Under the pieces are notes generated by a model. That model was given only the letters and a program-made list of their open reading frames with translations. It did not search any database and had not been told where the DNA came from. This document shows, in pieces, positions 1 to 10,506 of a stretch of 10,506 nt of DNA; position 1 is the first letter of the stretch, and every line of letters starts with the position of its first letter. The stretch comes from a virus (taxonomy: Duplodnaviria > Heunggongvirae > Uroviricota > Caudoviricetes): positions 1 to 10,506 of the IMG/VR virus record IMGVR_UViG_2529292883_000007, one strand, 5' to 3'. The translations under genes and the position numbers were made by a program.

Positions 1-411
1 TCAAAAAAAGTTTCCCTGATAAAACCCCAGTACACGCTGCACAACTTCGCTCTTCCGGCACTCGCTACAAATTATGTTCAATCTCCTGTCGTAGCGACGT
101 ATTTCTCCGTCAGGTAATGACCAGATAAGGTCCGGATCAACCACAGATGGTTTCTTCACCTTTGCCCTCGAGAGTTTTTTGCGGGCATTTTGCCAGTCCT
201 TACGAGCCTGTTCTGACGGGAATAACCCGTAGCCAGAGTTGTATACATCGCCACTGGCAACCAGCTCTCTGGCCAGAACGCTCATCAGATATCTTGTTGC
301 CCCGGTTTTAGCTTCCTGTTGTCGTAACGTCTCGCGCCCACTCTGGCATACGAGTTCAACAACCTGCCCTTTAATTTTTTCTCGCTCTTCTTGTGTAAAT
401 ACTTTTGCCAT
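1..411 (-). CDS. Hypothetical phage protein, 136 aa, last gene of the leftward early operon
   Basis: Complete ORF on the minus strand (ATG at 411-409, stop TGA at 3-1), 40 nt downstream of the replication gene and co-oriented. No family recognised from the sequence. Confidence 0.45.
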   Translation of the reverse strand: MAKVFTQEEREKIKGQVVELVCQSGRETLRQQEAKTGATRYLMSVLARELVASGDVYNSGYGLFPSEQARKDWQNARKKLSRAKVKKPSVVDPDLIWSLPDGEIRRYDRRLNIICSECRKSEVVQRVLGFYQGNFF

Positions 412-451
412 AAGTCCTCCTGAAAATTACCTCATGACCTGAAATAAACAC

Positions 452-1417
452 TCACCCCCTGAATCCCGGTGGAATTTCGGTATCCGGTTCAGAAACATGA
501 TTCACACAACGCTGCGTCGGACCACGTCCCAGACGAATCACCAGTTCATCCCATTTTTCGCGAAGCTTTGACGGACTCATGATGTTTTTTACCCAGAATG
601 GATCCCGCTGTACCCGACCAAACATTTCGCAAATTTGCCTGTGCGTTCTTCCATCCAGCATCCGCATTGTGCGCACGTCATTGGCCCACGCGGTCCAGTT
701 GGGTTCTTTCGGTCGCGCGATCTCGCCATCATCGCTGGCAGCCTGTTCGTAAAGGCTCACGATTCGTCCCCAGATCCACTGCGCACACACCAAATCTTCC
801 TGGCTGCCCCACTGGCGTTTTTTTGCACTGAACACAACCGCGTCAGGATGTCGGGTTAAAAAATCCTGTTCAGCCGTCTGCGGGTCCGGTTGCGAAGCTT
901 CCGGACGAGAAGTGTTTTTATTCTCTGTAGTAATCTCTGTTGTATTCTCTGTAAGATCATCGGGCCATTTTGACCCGATGACATTGGGTCGTCTTGAACC
1001 AATGGAGCGTGTCATTTTGGCCTCTTCCATCGTGTCATTTTGACCTGATGGAGCGGCGCATTTTGACCTGATGGATTCGCTCAATTTGCCACCATCTAAA
1101 AGCTCGCTCTCGTAATTAATCGTGTAAAAATTAGTCATGTCACGCTTTGATTTATTGAGTTTTTCGCAACGCAAAAGCCCCAGCGTTTTCAGACTTGCAA
1201 ATGCGCGTTTTAACGTTGATTCAGACCAGAACGGAAACTGTTCCAGCCATTGTTCCGTTGTGTTATAAATCCAGCGAACCCCGTCACATTCCATACCGGA
1301 ACCGGTATCTCTCAACCAGTAATGCAGCTGCTGCAACACGATGGCTTCGTTCAGACCAATTTTCATCGCCAGCTGCGTGTTTATAACCAGCGGGCGTTCA
1401 GCAAAAAGGAGCTTCAT
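452..1417 (-). CDS. Putative replication initiation protein (lambda O-like organisation)
   Basis: 321-aa ORF whose ATG (1417-1415) is preceded by a GGGGGAGGGG Shine-Dalgarno. The N-terminal part has a winged-helix-like pattern; the middle of the gene carries iteron-like direct repeats followed by an AT-rich stretch, as in lambda O/ori. It sits after Cro-like and YdaT-like genes as in lambdoid pR operons. Family assignment is from memory only. Confidence 0.6.
   Translation of the reverse strand: MKLLFAERPLVINTQLAMKIGLNEAIVLQQLHYWLRDTGSGMECDGVRWIYNTTEQWLEQFPFWSESTLKRAFASLKTLGLLRCEKLNKSKRDMTNFYTINYESELLDGGKLSESIRSKCAAPSGQNDTMEEAKMTRSIGSRRPNVIGSKWPDDLTENTTEITTENKNTSRPEASQPDPQTAEQDFLTRHPDAVVFSAKKRQWGSQEDLVCAQWIWGRIVSLYEQAASDDGEIARPKEPNWTAWANDVRTMRMLDGRTHRQICEMFGRVQRDPFWVKNIMSPSKLREKWDELVIRLGRGPTQRCVNHVSEPDTEIPPGFRG
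966..1075. repeat. Iteron-like direct repeats (putative origin of replication inside the O-like gene)
   Basis: Two perfect copies of CATTTTGACCTGATGGA at 1036-1052 and 1059-1075, near-copies at 966-982 and 1013-1029, and a degenerate copy around 982-1007, all with about 23-bp spacing. An AT-rich tract lies at 905-958 on the downstream side in the coding orientation; it also holds three 12-13-bp repeats (ATTCTCTGTA-type). Confidence 0.5.
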
Positions 1418-1438
1418 CCCCTCCCCCAGAACACGTTA

Positions 1439-1864
1439 TCAATGCACCACCACGGCATTTCCCGCCGGACCACCACGATTCATCTGATTGAAACCAGCAA
1501 TCACCACCGCGACAAGTTCATCAGCGTCTCGCACCAGTCGTTCATGCGCCTCCACCAGTTCCCGAAAATAAGCGGAACTGTGGCTGCGCATCCTGGCCAC
1601 CAGCGGAGGTGGCATTGCCTTTTCGATCGCTGGTAACAACGCCTGAATTTTTTTCACCGCATCAGGAGTATCTTTCTCCACCCAGCGGAAAATTTTCTGA
1701 GTATTGCGAGCTAGGGCTTCTGGGTGTGAATCGTCGTACAGTTCCGGAAACGTCATACCCAGCTCAAAATAAGCCTGGGTTATTTCAGCCGCCGGAACTT
1801 TTTCACCGTCCGGATACGCCCAGGCATTCATCGCCATGCGGATGTGTTCATGCTTGATTTTCAT
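1439..1864 (-). CDS. ydaT: YdaT-family protein (Rac prophage YdaT-like, CII-like position)
   Basis: 141-aa ORF starting MKIKHEHI..., which I recall as the YdaT N-terminus. Its ATG (1864-1862) overlaps the stop of the upstream Cro-like gene in an ATGA arrangement, implying translational coupling. Confidence 0.6.
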   Translation of the reverse strand: MKIKHEHIRMAMNAWAYPDGEKVPAAEITQAYFELGMTFPELYDDSHPEALARNTQKIFRWVEKDTPDAVKKIQALLPAIEKAMPPPLVARMRSHSSAYFRELVEAHERLVRDADELVAVVIAGFNQMNRGGPAGNAVVVH

Positions 1865-2121
1865 GAATCAACTCCCGCCACTTGCTGTGTGTTAGCCTGA
1901 AACTCAGCAGGCAAGCCGTCGGTTGGGTTGGGATAAATATCAGGGCGAATTTCATGCGGGGTAACTTCCCAGCTCATTAGCTGACATAACGGAATTACCT
2001 GCTTTGGGGGAACGCCAAAGCTAAACCATTGCCAAACAGTCTGTTGAGCGACCCCCATATAACGACCTATTTCAGCTTGAGAGAATTTCTGCCTAATTTT
2101 TTCGCGAGTGCTATCTATCAT
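1861..2121 (-). CDS. Cro/YdaS-like helix-turn-helix regulator
   Basis: 86-aa ORF with an HTH-like segment (SQAEIGRYMGVAQQTVWQW) and a GGAGG Shine-Dalgarno upstream of the ATG at 2121-2119. It is divergent from the repressor gene and first in the leftward operon. Confidence 0.65.
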   Translation of the reverse strand: MIDSTREKIRQKFSQAEIGRYMGVAQQTVWQWFSFGVPPKQVIPLCQLMSWEVTPHEIRPDIYPNPTDGLPAEFQANTQQVAGVDS

Positions 2122-2155
2122 TTTGCCCTCCTCTAAAAACTATAGGCAAAAGACT

Positions 2156-2194
2156 ACAATAAAAAACTGTGCACGATCAACAGTTTTTTATTGT
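2156..2194. promoter_or_regulatory. Operator O1: perfect inverted repeat with 15-bp arms and a 9-bp spacer, in the divergent promoter region
   Basis: ACAATAAAAAACTGT (2156-2170), spacer gcacgatca, ACAGTTTTTTATTGT (2180-2194); the arms are exact reverse complements. On the minus strand a TTGATC -35-like hexamer overlaps the palindrome and faces the Cro-like gene. Confidence 0.55.
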
Positions 2195-2230
2195 GATGCT
2201 TTTAACAGTATTTCCCTGTAAAATTGAACG

Positions 2231-2632
2231 ATGATGAACGCCTTAGAAGTATCTATGTACAGAATCAGCAAGCTTCTCCAAGAAACAGGATGGAGCCAGG
2301 CTGAGCTTGCTCGTAGAATTGGTGTGACACAACAAACTGTTCAACAATGGGTCAGCGGTAAAGCTACACCTAAAGCCTCAAGTTTGGATAAACTGGTTGA
2401 GGTTACAGGGCATCCATTGCATTGGTTTTTATTGCCTCCTGAAGAGGGTGAGCAAATCTTCACCCCTGATACGATGAAAATTGGTCCTCGCCAACGCGAA
2501 CTGCTCCAGGCTTTTAGTGCGTTTCCAGAAGAAGACCAAGAAAAAATGCTTCAGGAAATCAAAGACAAGAAAAAATCAATGGAAGAAACCATTGCTCGAT
2601 GGTTGGCGGCGCAAAAAATCCGCCGAGCGTGA
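2231..2632 (+). CDS. XRE-family HTH repressor (PaaR-like / DicA-analogous prophage repressor)
   Basis: 133-aa ORF with an N-terminal XRE HTH (SQAELARRIGVTQQTVQQWVSG). It is divergent from the Cro-like gene and lies directly upstream of the antitoxin and ParE genes, matching the paaR-paaA-parE three-gene layout as I remember it. Confidence 0.7.
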   Translation: MMNALEVSMYRISKLLQETGWSQAELARRIGVTQQTVQQWVSGKATPKASSLDKLVEVTGHPLHWFLLPPEEGEQIFTPDTMKIGPRQRELLQAFSAFPEEDQEKMLQEIKDKKKSMEETIARWLAAQKIRRA

Positions 2633-2657
2633 CCAGTGAACAAAGAGGAGTCATGTC

Positions 2658-2849
2658 ATGAGTACAGCCCTTTCTCCGATAGTTTCAGAATTCGAAACTA
2701 CCGAACAAGAAAACAGTTACAACGAATGGTTGCGCGCTAAAGTCGCGTCAAGCTTTGCAGATCATCGCCCCGCAATACCGCATGACGAGGTGATGGCTGA
2801 AATGGAAAATCTTATTGCTCAAATTGCTGCGACTAGCGGGAGTGTGTAA
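2658..2849 (+). CDS. PaaA-type small antitoxin (ParE-associated)
   Basis: 63-aa ORF with a GAGGAG Shine-Dalgarno 7 nt upstream. Its stop codon overlaps the start of the ParE reading frame (TAATG at 2847-2851). The sequence (SPIVSEFETTEQENSYNEWLRAKVA...) resembles PaaA-type antitoxins from memory. Confidence 0.6.
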   Translation: MSTALSPIVSEFETTEQENSYNEWLRAKVASSFADHRPAIPHDEVMAEMENLIAQIAATSGSV

Positions 2850-3138
2850 TGCTACCCATTTTATGGCTACCATCTGCTCGCGATGATTTGCGTCAGATCG
2901 TAGCCTATATTGCCAAGGAAAATGTTCCACAGCAGCTCGTAGACTAAAAATACGTATTGAAACGTCTGTTTTAGCCCTCTCAGAGCATCCATATCTATAT
3001 CCGCCAAGTGATAGAGTATCCGGTTTGCGGGAAATTGTAGCTCACCCTAATTATATCGTTTTGTACCGAGTAGCAGCTTCAAGCATTGAAATTGTAAATA
3101 TTGTGCATACCCGCAGACAGTTTCCCTTCCCTGCCTGA
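2849..3138 (+). pseudogene. parE: ParE-family toxin gene disrupted by a frameshift
   Basis: The frame from ATG 2849 encodes a ParE-like N-terminus (MLPILWLPSARDDLRQIVAYIAKENVP...) and stops at TAA 2945-2947. A different frame, open from 2887 to the TGA at 3136-3138, encodes a ParE-like C-terminus (...AARRLKIRIETSVLALSEHPYLYPPSDRVSGLREIVAHPNYIVLYRVAASSIEIVNIVHTRRQFP). The switch point is near 2927-2935. Confidence 0.6.
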
Positions 3139-3156
3139 ACCGAACGATTTTCACAC

Positions 3157-3180
3157 TCCCTCATACGAGGGATTTTTTTT
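3157..3180 (+). terminator. Intrinsic terminator after the repressor-TA operon
   Basis: Stem TCCCTC (3157-3162) / GAGGGA (3167-3172) with loop ATAC, followed by 8 T (3173-3180). Confidence 0.6.
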
Positions 3181-3191
3181 GCCAAAAAACA

Positions 3192-3235
3192 ACAATTAAA
3201 AACTGTTGACACCAAACAGTTTTTAATTGTAGATT
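3192..3235 (+). promoter_or_regulatory. Operator O2 overlapping a rightward early promoter (pL analogue)
   Basis: ACAATTAAAAACTGT (3192-3206), spacer tgacaccaa, ACAGTTTTTAATTGT (3216-3230); perfect 15-bp arms, one base different from O1. A consensus -35 TTGACA (3204-3209) straddles the left arm and spacer; a -10 candidate TAGATT lies at 3230-3235 but the spacing is long, so the exact -10 is uncertain. Confidence 0.55.
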
Positions 3236-3414
3236 GTTTTCACCAGCCCACCCCGTCCCACAGAATGCAGGGCAAAACTTCGAGTTACCAGGCAGTGGTC
3301 AGGGGTTAAGTAGCCAGCCCGAGGCGTATGAACATGACGGCAGGGATCAAATTTAATAACTATGCAGCAGGTTTTTGTTCCGCTACCCCGGCGTTAAGGG
3401 GAAATGAGGTCAAC

Positions 3415-3570
3415 ATGGAAACTATCGATCTTGGCAACAACGAATCTCTGGTGTGCGGTGTGTTTCCCAACCAGGACGGAACGTTCACCGCGATGACGTA
3501 TACAAAAAGCAAAACGTTTAAAACCGAATCTGGCGCGCGTCGTTGGTTGGTAAGACATTCAGGTGAATAA
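3415..3570 (+). CDS. ydfA: YdfA-like small protein (first gene of a dicB-operon-like transcript)
   Basis: 51-aa ORF (METIDLGNNESLV...) with a GAGGT Shine-Dalgarno 5 nt upstream. Its position downstream of the repressor-controlled promoter and upstream of DicF matches the Qin ydfA-ydfB-...-dicF order. An in-frame upstream start at 3328 or 3334 would give a 78-80-aa product and cannot be excluded. Confidence 0.5.
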   Translation: METIDLGNNESLVCGVFPNQDGTFTAMTYTKSKTFKTESGARRWLVRHSGE

Positions 3571-3571
3571 A

Positions 3572-3718
3572 ATGAACGAAACAGAATTAAAACACGTTAT
3601 CGCTCTGCTTCTGGAGGATGCAAAACGCCTCCAGCAACTGGAACCAAATGCAGGCACTGAAGCCCGCATCTGGCTGGCATTGTACGCTATTGAGTCAGGT
3701 CGTGATGATGAAGGTTAA
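3572..3718 (+). CDS. ydfB: YdfB-like small protein
   Basis: 48-aa ORF (MNETELKHVIALLLEDAKRLQQLEPNAGTEARIWLALYAIESGRDDEG), absent from the ORF track because it is under 60 aa. AGGTGA Shine-Dalgarno 5 nt upstream; the ATG is 1 nt after the ydfA-like stop. Confidence 0.45.
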   Translation: MNETELKHVIALLLEDAKRLQQLEPNAGTEARIWLALYAIESGRDDEG

Positions 3719-3999
3719 GCATCATCTAAGTTTTTTACATAGCGCCCATTAGATTCGGTAACAAGAACTCCGGGATTTTTCTTAACTTTTGAGGCCACTG
3801 ATTCAGCAAGGTTAGCAACAGATTCTTTGTCTTCATTCTTGCTTGAATATGTATATTCGGCATTAGGAAGTCGGTAGGTGTTCCCTGAAGAGGTTGTAAT
3901 CGTTCTGGAGAATCCCTTTGCTTCCATTCGTTCATGAAGCTTATCGTAATCAGCGGAACTGGAATCGCGAAGTTCGATCCTGACTGTAAATTTTGCCAT
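3715..3999 (-). CDS. Hypothetical 94-aa protein, convergent to the early operon
   Basis: ATG at 3999-3997 preceded by a strong GGAGGATAAA Shine-Dalgarno (the longer track ORF starts inside this SD, so the 94-aa form is preferred). Its stop overlaps the ydfB-like stop by 4 bp (TTAA at 3715-3718). Non-repetitive, protein-like composition; family not recognised. Confidence 0.6.
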   Translation of the reverse strand: MAKFTVRIELRDSSSADYDKLHERMEAKGFSRTITTSSGNTYRLPNAEYTYSSKNEDKESVANLAESVASKVKKNPGVLVTESNGRYVKNLDDA

Positions 4000-4335
4000 T
4001 TTATCCTCCATTAAGGGCTGAATTAAAAATGGAGACCAACACGCTGCTACGTGTGGTCGTGCGCCGGACACGGATAAGAATCCGGCACTGACAGTTTACT
4101 GAAAGGATATTTCCCTGAAAAGTCAGGGCATAACACGAAAGCGTACGGCGAAGGCCTTCACCTATGAGGTTTGTCGTTAAATTTCTTCGACCGTGCGCTT
4201 CCGGTTGTGGCACTCCGCGAAATGGCGCGGTGGTAAGTATGGCGGGGTTATTCCTTCCCCCGTTGAGGACACCGGGTTGTCAGGTTGACCATACACTTAA
4301 GTGACAACCCCGCTGCAACGCCCTCTGTTATCAAT

Positions 4336-4393
4336 TTTCTGGTGACGTTTGGCGGTATCAGTTTTACTCCGTGACTGCTCTGCCGCCCTTTTT
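4336..4393 (+). ncRNA. dicF: DicF small RNA (ftsZ-targeting prophage sRNA) with its 3' terminator hairpin
   Basis: TTTCTGGTGACGTTTGGCGGTATCAGTTTTACTCCGTGACTGCTCTGCCGCCC followed by TTTTT matches my recollection of the DicF sequence. It ends in a GGCGG...CCGCC hairpin plus a U-run, and lies downstream of ydfA/ydfB-like genes as in Qin. Confidence 0.7.
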
Positions 4394-4801
4394 AAAGTGA
4401 ATTTTGTGATGTGGTGAATGCGGCTAAGCGCACGCGGAACAGTTAAAAAAAATATTGTTATGGGTGGATTCTCTGTATCCGGCGTTAATTGTTAACTGGT
4501 TAACGTCACCTGGAGGCACCAGGCACCACATCAACAAAGTTTATTTAATTATGCGCGAATTAACCGTTATTCGTGCAGGGGATTTCTACACCTGAAATCC
4601 ACAGTTCTTTAATAATATGGATCGGGCTGTCACGTAAACCACAATTCGGGGTGCCGCCGAATGCCCTGATATATCCGCGGAACCGGAACACAGGGTCGGG
4701 ATGTGATTTTTTGAGCAAACCAAACTGGTGGCTTCCGACACTTGCGAGAAGTCCAAATTTAGACTAAATTATGACTAAATTTAACGACAAGGCCGTACTT
4801 C

Positions 4802-5035
4802 ATGAAAATAGAAACTATCAGCTACATCAAGAAAAACGCAGCCTCACTGGACCTGGCTGAACCAATTCTTGTCACGCAGAATGGTGTTCCTGCATACGTA
4901 ATTGAATCCTATGAGCAGCAACAGGAACGCGAGAATGCTATTGCGTTACTGAAACTTCTCACTATTTCAGAAAGTGACAGGTCTGAAGGCCGCGTGTTTT
5001 CAAAAGAACAGTTGCTGGATAGCTTTAACAAGTAA
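4802..5035 (+). CDS. Phd/YefM-family antitoxin
   Basis: 77-aa ORF (MKIETISYIKKNAASLDLAEPILVTQNGVPAYVIESYEQQQERENAIALLKLL...) with the Phd/YefM pattern. The toxin ORF follows 8 nt after its stop. Confidence 0.7.
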   Translation: MKIETISYIKKNAASLDLAEPILVTQNGVPAYVIESYEQQQERENAIALLKLLTISESDRSEGRVFSKEQLLDSFNK

Positions 5036-5043
5036 GGTTGACG

Positions 5044-5364
5044 ATGCAGATTGAATACACGCTTACCGCCAGAACAAGCCTTGAGCAAATTGCCGACCAT
5101 CTCCGGAGTAACGACATTGACCCACTCCCTGTAATAGAAGAAATTCTTGAACGATTTGAAACAAGAGTTACGGCATTCCCGTCCGGATGCCAGTTATGCC
5201 CGGAGTTGCTCAAACTTGGCGTGGCGAAATATAGAGAATGCAACACACCAGAAGGTTACAGAGTGCTGTACTCTGTAGAAGGGGATGTTATCACTGCACA
5301 CGCGGTTCTTTCCCAACGTCAGGATATTAAACAGTTACTGTTCAGGCGACTGATTAGAGCTTAG
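5044..5364 (+). CDS. RelE/ParE-superfamily toxin (putative)
   Basis: 106-aa ORF from ATG 5044 (the track begins at an in-frame TTG at 5038), with AAGG 6 nt upstream. ParE/RelE-like pattern (conserved N-terminal helix, and YRVLYSVEGDVITAHAVL near the C-terminus). Lies directly downstream of the Phd/YefM antitoxin. Confidence 0.55.
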   Translation: MQIEYTLTARTSLEQIADHLRSNDIDPLPVIEEILERFETRVTAFPSGCQLCPELLKLGVAKYRECNTPEGYRVLYSVEGDVITAHAVLSQRQDIKQLLFRRLIRA

Positions 5365-5382
5365 CAATCACAAATTCAGTAC

Positions 5383-5411
5383 CCCCTGTTCCCCCAAGTT
5401 CAGGGGTTTTT
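5383..5411 (+). terminator. Intrinsic terminator after the TA pair
   Basis: Stem CCCCTG (5383-5388) / CAGGGG (5401-5406) with a 12-nt loop, followed by TTTTTGCTTTT. Confidence 0.5.
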
Positions 5412-5426
5412 GCTTTTCTGAGGGTG

Positions 5427-5455
5427 TTGACGCTGGGAACTGTCAGGGGTATATT
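5427..5455 (+). promoter_or_regulatory. Near-consensus sigma70-type promoter upstream of rha
   Basis: -35 TTGACG (5427-5432), 17-nt spacer, -10 TATATT (5450-5455); predicted transcription start around 5462. Confidence 0.5.
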
Positions 5456-5510
5456 TTGTCCGCACCTCATAAAACGGGTGCCGGGCGTGGAAACCCGATG
5501 TTCACTAACG

Positions 5511-5543
5511 CGCATAACCGCGCTCAGGCGGTTTTTTTATGCG
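5511..5543 (+). terminator. Terminator/attenuator hairpin within the rha leader
   Basis: Inner stem CCGC (5518-5521) / GCGG (5528-5531) with loop GCTCAG, followed by 7 T (5532-5538). An outer stem CGCATAA (5511-5517) / TTATGCG (5537-5543) could alternatively sequester part of the U-run. It sits about 55-80 nt downstream of the predicted start. Confidence 0.45.
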
Positions 5544-5707
5544 TAATGCACAGCCACATTCAGATTATGGTGGGACGTGCAGGGCAGCCGCAAGGCTGGC
5601 CGGGTTCGTTAGTGACCGGTATTTCCACCCCTGTACGTCTCACCACCCTTATGGTCGTGGAAAACCTTGGTGGTGAGTTAATCAAATTCACTAACGAGGC
5701 TGCTATC

Positions 5708-6262
5708 ATGGCTACTATCCCTACCCTTTCTCACCCTGACGTAACCATCAAAAATGGTCGCGCTGTCACTACGTCTGTTGCGGTTGCAGAGTTCTTCCGC
5801 AAAATGCACAAGGACGTTTTGCGCAAAATTGAAACGCTAGAATGCTCTGAAGATTTTAACGAGCGCAATTTTACGCCCGTTACCTACACCGACGCCAAAG
5901 GCGAAAAACGACCAATGTACCAAATCACCAAAAACGGCTTCGTTTTCCTGGTGATGGGGTTCACCGGCAAAAAAGCCGCAGCTTTCAAGGAAGCCTACAT
6001 CGCTGAATTCGATCGCATGGAGGCAGAGTTGTACCAGCTTAATACCACTACCACAGACAAAATAATTCCTGGTGATGGTCGCACTCTCGTTGTTCACTTC
6101 GACGAACGCGGCAATATCAAATTCACCGAAACCGTTCCTGACGGCGCTCTCGTCTGTACTCTGGATACTTTCCGCTTTTATCTGGAGAAGCAGGGGTGGA
6201 CTCTTGTAAACAGGAGCGCAATTAAAAATATGACCGTCGAGCAGTTGCTGAGTATTAAATAG
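5708..6262 (+). CDS. rha: Rha-family phage regulatory protein
   Basis: 184-aa ORF from ATG 5708 with a GAGG Shine-Dalgarno 8 nt upstream. The N-terminus (KNGRAVTTSVAVAEFFRKMHKDVLRKIETL...YQITKNGFVFLVMGFTGKKAAAFKEAYIAEFDRME) matches the Rha domain pattern. The track's longer 268-aa ORF starts at a TTG inside the promoter -10 and is not preferred. Confidence 0.7.
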   Translation: MATIPTLSHPDVTIKNGRAVTTSVAVAEFFRKMHKDVLRKIETLECSEDFNERNFTPVTYTDAKGEKRPMYQITKNGFVFLVMGFTGKKAAAFKEAYIAEFDRMEAELYQLNTTTTDKIIPGDGRTLVVHFDERGNIKFTETVPDGALVCTLDTFRFYLEKQGWTLVNRSAIKNMTVEQLLSIK

Positions 6263-6308
6263 TTTTCTGGAATTTTCTTAATGCGACAAATTTATTAAGG
6301 AGATAATT

Positions 6309-6530
6309 ATGATTGCTCATCACTTCGGAACTGATGATATTCCTCGTCAGTGCGTGACTCCCGGTGATTATGTTATTCATAAAGGAAGAACATATATTGC
6401 TTCGGTAAACAATATTAAAAAACACCGGCTCTATATTCGTGATTTTTCCACACAACACTGTATTAATGAAACCATGATTAAAGTCTTCCTTGATCGTGAT
6501 GGTTTACCTGTAAAGGCGGAGTCGTGGTGA
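6309..6530 (+). CDS. Small protein, possibly KilR-like (Rac cell-division inhibitor family)
   Basis: 73-aa ORF with a strong AAGGAG Shine-Dalgarno 6 nt upstream, in a locally AT-rich segment. The KilR assignment rests on its length, its position next to the recE-like gene and a tentative recollection of the KilR sequence. Confidence 0.5.
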
Positions 6531-6647
6531 GCTGTAATAAAATAACTACCCCAATACGACATTCAGTTTAATAAATACATCAGATTCGATTCTTATATGC
6601 CAGCAATGGCAGTGATTTGTTCACCCCTAAATCTGTAATGAGGTTTA

Positions 6648-9086
6648 TTGATGAGCACGAATAAAGAACTGTTTGCGCTATATTGCGAAGCTAAAAATGA
6701 CAAGGTCAGAAAGCGTCTCGGTATTAAAGGTGGCTTTTTCTGGATCGAAGCCAAAAAACTTTCCGTTGCAGTTTCCCGCTGTATTGCCGCTATGGACGAT
6801 GCTGGCTACGACGAAGATGATTTCAAAAAAACAGTTCGCGTCCATTTGCCTGTTGTAAATGACCTGCCACCTGAAGGCGTATTTGATACTGATTTCTGTA
6901 ACCGTTACGAAAAAGGTGGAGAAGATGGCATCACAATGATGCCGGTACCGTCCAGCAACAGCGATGAAAACAGTAACGCCGCTAATACTAACGTCAACGG
7001 CGAAGACATGACTGAGATTGAGGAGAATATGCTTCTGCCGGTTTCAGGTCAGCTTCTGCCTGTTAGATGGCTGGCACAGCACGGCAGCGAAAAACCTGTC
7101 ACGCATGTTTCACGGGATGAACTGCGGGCATTACATAACGCACAGGAAGAAAAACTTCCCGCCGTTACCGCTCTGGCCATCTCAAATAAAGCAGTGCAAC
7201 TCGAACCGCTGGAGATTCGGGATTTGTACAAACTGGTGCGGGACACTGACAAAGTTTTTCCCGCCCCCGTAAATTCAGACCTGGGACTGATGACTTCCTT
7301 CATCGAAGCATACCTGGACGCTGACTACACCAATCGCGGTCTGCTTACAAAAGAGTGGATGAAAGGAAATCATGTTTCGCGAATCAGCCGCACACCATCC
7401 GGCGCTAACGCTGGCGGCGGTATTCTTACCGATCGCGGCGAAGGTTTTGTACACGATGATGCATCACTGGCGCGCGACGTAGCCACTGGCGTGCTGGCCC
7501 GTTCAATGGACGTGGACATTTATAACCTTCATCCGGCACACGCTAAACGCGTCGAGGAAATTATCGCTGAAAATAAACCGCCCTTTTCTGTTTTCTTCAG
7601 CAAATTCATCACCATGCCGGGCCACAAGGATTTCTCCCGTGCCATCGTGGTTGCCTCCGTGAAAGAAGCACCAGTTGGTATAGAGGCTATGCCCCACCGT
7701 GTCACCGAATACCTGAATAAGGTGCTGACTGAAACCGATCATGCCAACCCTGATCCGGAAATCGTGGATATTGCCTGCGGTCGCTCCTCTGCCCCGATGC
7801 CGCAGCGTGTAACGGAAAAAGAAAAACATGATGAAGAAAAACCGCAACCATCTGGCGCAATGGCAGATGAACAGGCAACGGCTGAAACAGTGGAACCGGA
7901 TGCAACTGAACATCATCCGGACACGCAGCCGGTGGATGCTCAGCCACAGGTGAATTCTGTTGATGCGAAATATCAGAAACTGCGGGCAGAACTCCATGAA
8001 GCCAGGAAAAACATTTCGCCTAAAAATCCTGTCGACGCAAACAAATTACTGGCCGCCTCTCGCGGAGAATTTGTTGAAGGGATTAGTGACCCGAATGATC
8101 CGAAATGGGTTAAGGGGCACCAGACTCGCGAGTCTTCGAACCAGAATCAACCAGAAGTGGAACAAACCAGGTCAGAATCGGGACAAAATAGCCAGGATGC
8201 ACACCAAAATGAACCAAAAACGATACATCCGGAGCCAGCAGCGCAACATGCACAGAAAAATCCCTGTAATGTTTGTGGGGAAACTGGCGGGGGCACATGC
8301 CCTGACTGTGCCTCAGTAATGGGTGACGCAACTTACCATGAGACATTCTGCGAGGAAGATTCAGATGAATCTCAGGAAAAAGCTCCGGAGGAGATGGAAA
8401 ACCCTGAACATCCGCATCCGGAAAATACTGACAGCAATCAGCATAACAATAGCGGTGATAAAACTGACAGGACGACAAATTCCTTAATTAATATGTACGG
8501 TTATAAGAAAAGAACATCCACCAGCAGAATGTGTCACCATCTGATGATCGACCTTGAAACAATGGGAAAAAATCCTGATTCCCCGATTATCTCAATAGGT
8601 GCAATATTTTTCGATCCGCAAACCGGAGAGATGGGACCAGAATTTAATAAAACCATCGATCTGGAAACTGCTGGCGGAGTCATTGATCGGGACGCGATCA
8701 AGTGGTGGCTGAAGCAATCACGCGAAGCGCAATCTGCCATTCTGACCGATGAAATCCCGTTAGATGATGCACTGCTGCAATTGCGGGAATTTATCGCCGA
8801 AAACTCCGGTGAATTGTTTGTTCAGGTCTGGGGAAATGGAGCCAACTTCGACAACGTGATTTTGCGCCGTTCATATGAACGGCAGGGTATCCCCTGCCCG
8901 TGGCGCTACTACAACGATCGCGATGTACGCACAATCATTGAACTGGGAAAATCCATAGACTTCGATGCCAGGACGCCTATTCAATTCGAAGGCATACGCC
9001 ACAATGCGCTGGATGATGCCCGTCACCAGGCGAAATACGTTTCAGCAATCTGGCAAAAACTGATCCCGAATCAGTCTGATTTTTAA
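6648..9086 (+). CDS. Large prophage exonuclease: RecE-like N-terminal/central region fused to a C-terminal DEDDh (DnaQ/RNase T-like) 3'-5' exonuclease domain
   Basis: 812-aa ORF with GAGG 8 nt upstream. The C-terminal domain has the three DEDDh motifs: Exo I MIDLETMG, Exo [14 protein letters not shown], Exo [15 protein letters not shown] CxxC-x7-CxxC motif ([15 protein letters not shown]) and an acidic, Pro/Gln/Glu-rich low-complexity segment lie between the N-terminal region and the nuclease domain. It occupies the exo/recE position upstream of xis-int. Confidence 0.75.
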
Positions 9087-9149
9087 TGTTCAACCCCAGT
9101 CGTCGCCCCCAGCTATAGTGGCGGCGACCATGATTAGCGAACGATACTC

Positions 9150-9398
9150 ATGGCAAGACTTATTCTGCTCACTGAGTGGGCAAAAGAGGAATTCAGCGAT
9201 CCGGTCCCTACTCCGGGCACGTTAAGTAAATACGCTAAAGCCGGAATGATATTTCCTCTCCCCAAAAAAGTTGGAAGACACTGGCGAGTGGATCCGCGAG
9301 CTCGCTTTGTCGGAATGGTAAACAAGCCGGAGGTGATCGCCACAGATCATCCTGCTTTAAAGAGGATACTGGAAGATGGCACGCCCGCGAAAATATAA
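9150..9398 (+). CDS. xis: Excisionase (Xis-like)
   Basis: 82-aa ORF immediately upstream of int, with its 3' end overlapping the int start by 23 nt as in lambda xis/int. The sequence (LTEWAKEEF...MIFPLPKKVGRHWRVDP) resembles excisionase-family proteins. Confidence 0.65.
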   Translation: MARLILLTEWAKEEFSDPVPTPGTLSKYAKAGMIFPLPKKVGRHWRVDPRARFVGMVNKPEVIATDHPALKRILEDGTPAKI

Positions 9399-10506
9399 AA
9401 CCGCTGTTCCGGGATTATCTCCGTATTTTGACAAAAGAAATAACAAAGTTTACTGGCGTTACAGGCATCCCATCACAGGTAAAAATCATGGACTCGGCAG
9501 TATTGACCAGAAACTGGCGGAAACCATTGCAGCAGAAGCGAACAGCCGTCTTGCCAGACAACAAATGGAGCAAATGCTCAGTCTGCAGGAGAAAATTATT
9601 AGTGATACCGGCGGCGCATCAACCGTTTCCATTTTTCTGAATAATTACAGAAAAATTCAACAGGAAAGATATGAGAACGGAGAGATCAAACTCAGCACGC
9701 TGAAGCAAAAAGCGGCTCCTCTCAGGGTGTTTGATGAACGTTTTGGAGCCAGGCCGCTAGATGCCATAACCGTAAAAGATGTGGTATCAGTGCTGGAAGA
9801 ATACAAGGCAAAGGGACATAACAGAATGGGACAAATTTTCAGGAAGGTCTTGATCGATGTTTTCCGGGAGGCTCAACAAACGGGTGATGTCCCGCCAGGC
9901 TTTAACCCGGCTGAATCGGCAAAAAAACCGCAAGTGCGGATATCAAGACAGCGACTGACTTTTGATGAGTGGATGATGATTTATAACGCAGCGGAAAAGG
10001 ATGGTTACTTTTTACAGCGCGGCATGCTGCTGGCTCTGATGACGGGCCAGCGTCTTTCGGATATTTGCAAAATGCAGTTTTCGGATATCCGGGATGGTTA
10101 CCTTCATGTCGAACAGCAAAAAACAGGAGCCCGGATAGCCATTCCTCTGGCTCTGCGTTGCGACAAATTAAATCGTACCCTGGGTGACGTGGTGTCATCC
10201 TGTCGTGATTACATCCTTAGTCCGTGGTTATTGCACCATCATCACGCTAAGGGGATGGGTAAGCGCGGCGGGATGGTTAAACCAGCAACGTTAACAGTCG
10301 CATTTAAAAAAGCCCGGGATTCTGTGGATTACAACTGGCGTGCTAATGGCACGCCACCCTCTTTCCATGAGCAAAGATCTTTATCAGAACGATTGTTCAG
10401 AGAACAGGGAATTGATACCAAAATTTTGCTGGGTCATTCGAATCAAAAAATGACCGATATTTACAACGATGCACGCGGTAAGGAGTGGAAAAAACTGGTC
10501 ATTTGA
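9376..10506 (+). CDS. int: Lambda-family tyrosine integrase
   Basis: 376-aa ORF with clear similarity to lambda Int as I recall it: RLTFDEWMMIYNAAEKDGYF / MTGQRLSDICKMQFSDIRDGYLHVEQQKTGARIAIPLAL and the C-terminal PPSFHEQRSLSERLF...LLGHSNQKMTDIYNDARGKEWKKL, including the catalytic R...HxxR...Y arrangement. The stop is at the window edge, so the att site should lie just downstream of the window. Confidence 0.9.
   Translation: MARPRKYKTAVPGLSPYFDKRNNKVYWRYRHPITGKNHGLGSIDQKLAETIAAEANSRLARQQMEQMLSLQEKIISDTGGASTVSIFLNNYRKIQQERYENGEIKLSTLKQKAAPLRVFDERFGARPLDAITVKDVVSVLEEYKAKGHNRMGQIFRKVLIDVFREAQQTGDVPPGFNPAESAKKPQVRISRQRLTFDEWMMIYNAAEKDGYFLQRGMLLALMTGQRLSDICKMQFSDIRDGYLHVEQQKTGARIAIPLALRCDKLNRTLGDVVSSCRDYILSPWLLHHHHAKGMGKRGGMVKPATLTVAFKKARDSVDYNWRANGTPPSFHEQRSLSERLFREQGIDTKILLGHSNQKMTDIYNDARGKEWKKLVI

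Follow-up and report, generated by a model that had tools for sequence, protein, structure and literature searches.

The locus studied here lies at positions 4,394 to 5,364 of a 10,506-nucleotide stretch of tailed-virus DNA (IMG/VR record IMGVR_UViG_2529292883_000007, positions 1 to 10,506; the whole stretch is called the window below). It raises the question of what kind of toxin-antitoxin (TA) pair is encoded by its two small adjacent genes, and whether the pair is an intact unit under its own control. An earlier note on this DNA had proposed a Phd/YefM-type antitoxin and a RelE/ParE-like toxin with their own promoter, direct-repeat operator and terminator. On the whole, our analysis shows that the pair is very probably an intact type II TA operon of the PfiA/PfiT family, whose characterised member is known from the filamentous prophage Pf4 of Pseudomonas aeruginosa, and that it forms a cargo cassette (moron) complete in itself. 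The evidence comes from the family and fold of the two proteins, the integrity of the genes, a promoter and three-site operator conserved in the family, and the borders of the cassette, and it is presented below in this order together with the alternatives that each part bears on.

Family and fold of the two proteins

Both open reading frames (ORFs) lie exactly where the earlier note had placed them, and the assignment to a Phd/YefM antitoxin and a RelE/ParE-superfamily toxin is supported by Pfam, by sequence matches in the PDB and by Foldseek. The antitoxin passes the cutoff of Pfam PF02604 PhdYeFM_antitox (33.2 bits, cutoff 29.8) and the toxin that of PF05016 ParE_toxin (33.8 bits, cutoff 23), and both score under the cutoff of the NCBIfam subfamily models. 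In PHROGs the antitoxin belongs to phrog_2268, an antitoxin family of the moron category, and the toxin to phrog_12577, whose function category is unknown. Actually, identical proteins already carry the PGAP names Phd/YefM antitoxin and RelE/ParE toxin, both genes are annotated by PGAP in related genomes, and NCBI already has an entry with precisely this toxin sequence. The two genes are separated by 8 bp, and each is preceded by an AAGG Shine-Dalgarno sequence, at 4789-4792 for the antitoxin and at 5034-5037 for the toxin.

A closer assignment is obtained with phmmer against all PDB sequences, BLASTP against the Pf phage copy and Foldseek against the PDB. The antitoxin matches PfiA (9w3a_E) over residues 1-71 with E=5.8e-22 and the toxin matches PfiT (9w3a_A) with E=1.6e-7, these two 9w3a chains being the only real phmmer matches among all PDB sequences. 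BLASTP, which the earlier note had proposed as a check, gives an identity of 56% over 71 aa for the antitoxin and of 32% for the toxin. The AlphaFold2 (AF2) model of the toxin, built with 31 homologues, has a mean predicted local distance difference test score (pLDDT) of 89.4 and shows a beta-alpha-alpha arrangement, a sheet of three strands and, at residues 95-105, a C-terminal helix with a pLDDT of merely 66-73. The top Foldseek match of the model is PfiT itself (9w3a; template modelling score, TM, 0.86; root-mean-square deviation, rmsd, 1.8; 107-108 columns, the helix 95-105 included). It is followed exclusively by ParE toxins (6x0a, 7r5a, 5cw7/5czf, 6xrw and 8c24; TM 0.67-0.72), and RelE, YafQ, HigB and YoeB come at TM 0.45-0.58 with rmsd 3.3-6.4. 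This ranking shows that the toxin is ParE-like, specifically PfiT-like; therefore, the superfamily named in the label "RelE/ParE-like" holds, while its RelE side is disfavoured. The similarity of the 106-aa protein to the RelE/ParE fold, on which the earlier note had staked its claim, is present.

PfiT and PfiA correspond to PA0729 and Rorf0727 of Pf4 (PDB 9w3a), and several of their properties are of importance for the present pair. PfiT is toxic and is neutralised by PfiA; PfiA alone does not bind DNA; and a PfiA6PfiT4 decamer, whose formation requires the C-terminal helix of PfiT, sets three PfiA dimers on three adjacent sites of their own promoter around AATTC-GGTCT-GAATT, an operator mapped by footprinting and electrophoretic mobility shift assay (PMC7264888, PMC13048266). 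Phosphorylation of T5 by a kinase of the co-resident prophage Pf6 leads to a 2:2 complex that does not bind DNA, and deletion of pfiT increases Pf4 production (PMC7264888, PMC13048266). DNA binding and assembly of PfiA require K10, R11, T5, S7, T25, G28 and P30 (PMC13048266). Among these residues, T5, S7, K10, T25, G28 and P30 are all kept in the window antitoxin, and position 11 has K, a conservative change from R. In 69 distinct antitoxin homologues T5, S7 and K10 are invariant, and K/R11, A13, A14, T25, Q26, G28, P30, A31, Y32, V33 and E35 are near-invariant.

The fold ranking bears also on another view, in which the toxin would act as a ribosome-dependent mRNA endonuclease of the RelE type and not as a gyrase poison of the ParE type. 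The superfamily is common to both types, the toxin has a weak match to TIGR02385 RelE_StbE (23.4 bits), Phd/YefM antitoxins frequently partner RelE/YoeB-type RNases, and the target of PfiT is not established. Against these stand the cutoff of TIGR02385 (27.9 bits), which the score does not reach, the structural neighbours after PfiT, which are all ParE toxins with the RNase members below them, and the filamentation and lysis caused by PfiT overexpression, which is a phenotype like that of DNA damage. We therefore consider an RNase toxin improbable, and membership in the RelE/StbE mRNA interferases is rejected on the TIGR02385 score and on the position of the RNases below all ParE structures.

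Integrity of the two genes

The earlier note had judged the toxin to look intact, and this is borne out. Both ORFs are full length in all close copies, dN/dS (the ratio of nonsynonymous to synonymous substitution rates) is 0.08-0.21 for the two genes and 0.08-0.16 for the toxin, the AF2 model is confident and complete, and 17 toxin positions are invariant across the 31 homologues. The antitoxin and toxin genes are under purifying selection. All these observations speak against a decaying remnant, in which an inactive toxin would accompany an antitoxin retained as a regulator or anti-addiction factor, like PaaA2/parE2. What can be brought forward for such a remnant is that the neighbouring parE2-like gene is frameshifted and that the antitoxin (63-88% identity family-wide) is more conserved than the toxin (46-70%), and with the genes as they are we regard it as very improbable.

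Promoter and three-site operator

The promoter described in the earlier note, TTGCGA and TAAATT with a spacer of 17 nt, is found in the window with hexamers and spacer as given there, its coordinates (4743-4771) being one base off. The direct repeat holds in part: GACTAAATT occurs twice exactly, at 4762-4770 and 4773-4781 with a period of 11 bp, and nowhere else in the 10.5-kb window, and it overlaps the -10 hexamer as claimed. Its positions had been misplaced (4758-4766 and 4770-4778), and a degenerate third copy, GTCCAAATT at 4751-4759, makes the array one of three sites spaced by 11 bp (Table 1). In addition, overlapping inverted repeats are abundant in the operator segment.

To see this arrangement in the family, 72 distinct upstream regions of family members are compared, whose surroundings are unrelated. 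They share a block in register, consisting of TTGyyG, 2-3 variable bases, and then GGTCTAAATAT GGTCTATATTA AAACC, with 1.18 bits of information per position against 0.09-0.12 in the 20-nt flanks, a contrast that is somewhat inflated as the block was found by consensus matching. Within it, the -10 hexamer follows the -35 hexamer after exactly 17 nt and has the composition T(67) A(72) W A(71) T(70) T(72), and GWC cores repeat at 11-bp intervals. The distance from the block to the ATG ranges from 19 to 101 nt, which shows that the conservation of the block does not follow from mere proximity to the gene. All loci but one beat the mean of their own shuffles, and most beat the shuffle maximum. The claim that the pair has its own promoter and repeat operator is thus strengthened by the conservation of the TTG and TAWATT block.

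The Pf phage operator, GGTTCAAATTC GGTCTGAATTC GGATT, has the identical 11-bp-period architecture and core, and when its 27-mer is used as a probe on both strands, the best match in the window is found at 4750-4776, with 18/27 positions. No convincing further operator copy, which might have pointed to control of prophage genes, is found in the window with the 27-mer probe, the next best match being 17/27, inside int. Judged from these sequences, the promoter is real, and the direct repeat belongs to an operator of three sites that is homologous to that of PfiAT, where binding of the complex is predicted. As a separate observation, one viral-contig variant (L079/L080, about 3700-3760, equivalent to window 4771-4801) has its third repeat and 5' untranslated region (UTR) replaced by unrelated sequence, and the replacement begins exactly after repeat 2, that is, with a recombination junction within the operator.

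Borders of the cassette

DicF and the isrK promoter flank the place where the cassette is inserted. The prophage of E. coli E24377A, which has no TA pair, is homologous up to about 4547 and again from the isrK promoter/isrK (5462) onwards, and E24377A has merely 71 bp between the two breakpoints. The homology of ETEC1746 ends at 5416, just past the T-run of the terminator. A Salmonella prophage carries the pair in the same slot, with a toxin 86% identical, and the shared sequence extends from about 4553 to the toxin stop. From these homology breaks, the cassette is about 880 bp long and is a classic moron.

The genes, promoter and terminator of the cassette had been described before, and a leader of 190 bp had been overlooked. 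This leader is 84-100% identical across the E. coli and Salmonella prophage copies. It was tried as a coding sequence and rejected, since none of its ORFs survives the indels by which the E. coli and Salmonella copies differ. At the other end, the intrinsic terminator placed at 5383-5411 by the earlier note is present as a hairpin and T-run: its arms are CCCCTG (5383-5388) and CAGGGG (5401-5406) around a 12-nt loop, followed by TTTTTGCTTTT. In the E. coli copies it is conserved and forms the right-hand border of the cassette, and the Salmonella copy does not have it.

Table 1. Positions of the TA cassette, its control elements and related features (window coordinates unless a locus is named)
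Feature	Position	Strand	Remark
Whole inserted cassette (leader, promoter/operator, antitoxin, toxin, terminator)	4548-5426	+	Bounded by homology breaks
Cassette-specific non-coding leader	4553-4741	+	Found with the TA genes in every prophage copy from E. coli and Salmonella
Conserved, apparently structured leader element (about 105 nt)	4604-4708	+	T-run 4708-4713 follows in the prophage lineage
-35 hexamer TTGCGA	4742-4747	+	TTG kept in 70/72 family upstream regions, in register
Operator, 11-bp repeats AGTCCAAATTT / AGACTAAATTA / TGACTAAATTT	4750-4782	+	GWC cores at 4751-53, 4762-64 and 4773-75
-10 hexamer TAAATT	4765-4770	+	Inside repeat 2; family consensus TAWATT, 17 nt after -35
Antitoxin gene, PfiA-like (Phd/YefM fold)	4802-5035	+	77 aa, ATG start
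Toxin gene, PfiT-like ParE-fold	5044-5364	+	106 aa, ATG start
Terminator-like hairpin CCCCUG-N12-CAGGGG + U5GCU4	5383-5417	+	Last shared element before homology ends
PaaR2-like helix-turn-helix (HTH) gene	2231-2632		
PaaA2 antitoxin gene	2658-2849		PF21217, 69.8 bits
parE2-like toxin gene	2849-3138		Frameshifted
Leader element copies, fetched loci L107 and L108	2499-2602		
Leader element copies, fetched loci L109 and L110	1499-1602		
Leader element copies, metagenome loci L112, L115, L118, L124, L130, L154 and others			

Points against the assignment

Several points weigh against the assignment as a PfiA/PfiT-type operon, or against parts of it. The promoter hexamers match the consensus at only 8/12 positions, which is weak, and a sigma-70 and terminator consensus scan of the window, with a threshold of 9/12 for promoters, does not call the TA promoter for this reason; nor does it call the TA terminator, which falls outside the scan rule because of its 12-nt loop, and it calls only the isrK promoter and the isrK terminator. 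Therefore, on the window alone, the TA promoter and terminator are not above chance, and the terminator, with its long loop and a folding z-score of only -1.6, is unremarkable. The AT-rich part of the third repeat (4777-4782) is not conserved family-wide. In 15% of shuffled windows some position likewise scores 18/27 with the Pf operator, so the match is not significant by score and is informative by its position alone. The operator here overlaps the -10 hexamer and the spacer, while that of Pf4 overlaps the -35 hexamer. Cys109 of PfiT, which forms a disulfide in the decamer, has no counterpart in the window toxin, and for this reason a 6:4 stoichiometry is not assured. Besides, toxicity, neutralisation and DNA binding of the module are transferred from its relatives, and the gyrase step of the mechanism proposed below is taken from the wider ParE family, since the target of PfiT itself has not been demonstrated.

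The weak promoter match, uncalled by the scan, is also what favours the view that the pair has no dedicated promoter or operator, being transcribed only by read-through of the early-left operon, with AT-rich repeats arisen by chance; the cassette indeed lies on the same strand, 3' of DicF and within the early operon. This view is hard to reconcile with the TTG and TAWATT block, which is kept at fixed spacing at 72 distinct loci in plasmids, chromosomes and prophages, with the hairpin and T-run of the DicF terminator directly 5' of the cassette, and with the exact 9-mer that occurs nowhere else in the window. It is accordingly given hardly any credence here, and the pair is further treated as an operon with its own promoter and operator.

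Prophage context and distribution of the family

The window is 100% identical to GCA_000241995.1 JH590550.1, where the prophage adjoins ompW. In all likelihood the carrier is a Rac/Qin-like lambdoid prophage in E. coli, with the cassette in its early-left region. Rfam models locate DicF at 4337-4388 (76.7 bits), isrK at 5462-5538 and a C4-type antisense RNA at 5563-5650. DicF ends in its terminator hairpin and T-run before the cassette, and on the other side the isrK promoter, TTGACG-17-TATATT, is found at 5427-5455.

The cassette is present in 7/5426 complete E. coli genomes, and more than 4000 carry the flanks only. None of the deposited enterobacterial phage genomes has the cassette, the PPompW-type records being without it, and the only deposited phage genomes with an antitoxin homologue are six Pseudomonas inoviruses. 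In the plasmid collection that was searched, the cassette DNA is absent, and the flanks alone match.

The family is much wider than the cassette, with 85 homologues across Enterobacterales. From the loci fetched (74 genome and 10 viral), an antitoxin gene stands immediately 5' of the toxin gene in about 80/86. The commonest relative, whose toxin is 63% identical and which occurs in more than 2000 blocks of the collection, is located directly after traI and a dsbA-like gene in conjugative plasmids, and this position at the end of the tra region is consistent with an addiction role. The same relative (L099-L104, gene at 5001-5336) adjoins a tyrosine recombinase gene. As for the two proteins, the higher conservation of the antitoxin is the reverse of the usual type II TA pattern; a DNA-binding and assembly domain under strong constraint would fit this.

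Proposed mechanism and role

The following mechanism is proposed by homology, from the work on Pf4 and from ParE biology. The sigma-70 promoter would give a bicistronic mRNA, antitoxin first and then toxin. The antitoxin would dimerise through its N-terminal Phd/YefM-type (PAD) domain, and its C-terminal helices would wrap the ParE-fold toxin and neutralise it. The two proteins are expected to form a complex, probably of higher order through the extra C-terminal helix of the toxin, as in PfiA6PfiT4, and this complex would occupy the three 11-bp-spaced sites from just past the -35 through the -10 hexamer. Since the proposed sites span this region, binding of the complex would shut off transcription of the cassette, and the operon would be autorepressed with conditional cooperativity, in the manner of PfiAT. 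Upon loss of the antitoxin, by proteolysis or by loss or excision of the prophage, free toxin would arrest growth, most likely by poisoning DNA gyrase, by analogy with ParE.

By analogy with Pf4, the role of the module is most likely the stabilisation of the prophage and/or the restraint of its induction, and exclusion of other phages is possible as a by-product. A different view, close to the abortive-infection or anti-phage cargo that the earlier note had suggested, takes anti-phage defence, by abortive infection or superinfection exclusion, as the main selected role: an infecting phage would deplete the labile antitoxin or stop host transcription, and the toxin would halt the cell before the invader matures. 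This view is compatible with the TA mechanism and competes over the role alone. It is favoured by the position of the cassette, which occupies the early-left slot where lambdoid prophages carry variable cargo and where sieB, dicB and kil-type genes lie, and by the Salmonella prophage with the related pair, which carries also the Kiwa gene KwaA. Moreover, PfiAT is named a defence system in DefenseFinder-based studies and pfiT affects superinfection immunity in Pf4; it is on these Pf4 superinfection data only that PfiAT is counted as a defence system. On the other hand, the search with PADLOC-DB v2 models gives 0 matches at E<=1 for the two proteins, our literature search found no plaque assay for any enterobacterial member, and the commonest relative occupies the classic addiction position in conjugative plasmids. 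On balance, defence as the main selected role seems rather unlikely, and we keep prophage stabilisation and restraint of induction as the preferred reading of the role.

An element of the leader shared with secretion operons

The leader of the cassette includes a conserved and apparently structured element (Table 1). Copies of about 77% identity are found about 40 nt 5' of a small ORF, after which come virB1 and virB2, that is, ahead of VirB-type operons of type IV secretion systems (T4SS), in E. coli integrative and conjugative elements (ICEs; about 190 genomes) and in conjugative plasmids of Pantoea and Plautia. Such T4SS operons of ICEs and conjugative plasmids are the only other setting of the fold. 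A pattern scan of metagenomes gives 120 hits, mostly by chance, with 19 loci having the full element, and in viral contigs the element is found only together with the TA cassette.

When 21 distinct copies are fitted to a four-helix fold, 99.1% of cells are paired, in comparison with 29-45% in slid controls; compensatory changes are seen in four pairs, and the G-U pairs speak for the + strand. The leader fold has no thermodynamic support (z=+0.47 on the + strand and -0.09 on the - strand), the Rfam search of the element gives 0 matches at E<=1, and promoter scans 5' of the element in an ICE and a plasmid give chance-level sites only. A known RNA was considered for the leader and rejected on this Rfam result; the match to the Salmonella sRNA STnc100 at 4390-4576 lies mostly 5' of the cassette and is under the gathering score (45.3 bits, gathering 47). 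This match spans the dicF-dicB spacer and a dicB remnant.

The element may act as a 5'-UTR regulator that was acquired together with the cassette, as an insulating terminator, or as a DNA site. That it is a new cis-regulatory RNA or DNA element and that, jointly, the phospho-switch of Pf4, to which the invariant T5 and S7 of the antitoxins across Enterobacterales could point, operates also in enteric prophages and plasmids is an unlikely combination. If the element is indeed of this new kind, the TA cassette would have been captured from a conjugative element, or would answer the same signal. As an element common to T4SS operons, it is perhaps of independent interest.

Neighbouring genes

Another system, of the PaaR2-PaaA2-ParE2 type, lies upstream in the window (Table 1). 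The earlier note had called the upstream ParE decayed, and we find a 2-bp insertion near 2927 which frameshifts the parE2-like gene and leads to a stop after 32 codons; E. coli A8 and P13-6 have an unbroken copy of 95 aa. The window thus retains an orphan PaaA2 antitoxin and its regulator. Between the two systems, the ORF at 3715-4071 on the - strand (118 aa) has a borderline Pfam match to GhoS, a type V antitoxin (21.1 bits, cutoff 21), and is annotated GhoS in E. coli E24377A.

Downstream of the cassette, the isrK promoter, isrK and the C4-type antisense RNA (5427-5650) overlap the 5' part of the ORF at 5456-6262, whose product matches Phage_ASH (residues 3-94) and Phage_pRha (105-189). The region 5427-6262 is an antirepressor-type immunity region, in which the RNA genes overlap the predicted coding sequence.

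Comparison with known systems

The closest known system is PfiA/PfiT. Both operons are prophage cargo with the antitoxin gene before the toxin gene, the gap being 8 bp here and 9 bp in Pf4. The DNA-binding and assembly residues T5, S7, K10 and K/R11 are kept in an antitoxin that is 56% identical, and the toxin, with 32% identity, shares the fold at TM 0.86 and the extra C-terminal helix. The operators are alike in their three 11-bp-spaced sites, with GGTCT-like cores between AT-rich pentamers and overlap with the promoter. The differences are that the present module belongs to an Enterobacterales host and a tailed lambdoid prophage, whereas Pf4 is an inovirus; that both proteins are shorter here (the antitoxin has 77 aa and PfiA 83 aa, the toxin has 106 aa and no Cys109, and PfiT 115 aa); that the operator overlaps a different hexamer; that no PfkA/PfkB-type kinase is in view here; and that the present module is known from sequence alone.

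Classical ParD/ParE systems (RK2, Caulobacter, P. aeruginosa 6xrw, M. tuberculosis 8c24 and Mesorhizobium 6x0a) share with the pair the toxin fold (TM 0.67-0.72), the Pfam ParE_toxin domain, a C-terminal strand motif of the H-x5-R-x-D type and the presumed gyrase target. The antitoxin here is however of the Phd/YefM type and not a ribbon-helix-helix ParD, the toxin has the added C-terminal helix, and the identity is merely 16-23%. The PaaR2-PaaA2-ParE2 system of E. coli O157:H7 prophages (5cw7/5czf), of which the decayed copy lies 2 kb 5' in the same window (2231-3138), also has a ParE-fold toxin in lambdoid prophages, but it consists of three components with a separate HTH regulator, its antitoxin PaaA2 is intrinsically disordered and without a DNA-binding domain, and ParE2 is 18-20% identical to the toxin here. 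Phd/Doc of P1 and YefM/YoeB resemble the pair in the N-terminal fold of the antitoxin, its DNA-binding mode and the conditional cooperativity with the toxin as corepressor, and Phd/Doc is likewise phage-borne addiction cargo. Their toxins, in contrast, are the unrelated kinase Doc or the RelE-type RNase YoeB, and their operators are paired palindromes instead of three sites spaced by 11 bp.

Significance

PfiAT has already been named, and DefenseFinder-based papers already report it in Enterobacterales, so the module is a further member in a different type of prophage and of an ordinary, annotated kind. As a TA pair its significance is minor, as it adds a further intact module of the addiction or cargo type to those of prophages. 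In Rac/Qin-like prophages, DicF and isrK are seen to enclose a cleanly bordered slot for cargo. For the family, a hitherto uncharacterised enterobacterial clade, whose members occur on chromosomes, on conjugative plasmids and in lambdoid prophages, is now tied to the structurally solved PfiAT, and the three-site operator with an 11-bp period, as predicted from the PfiA6PfiT4 structure, is a family-wide feature that overlaps the promoter.

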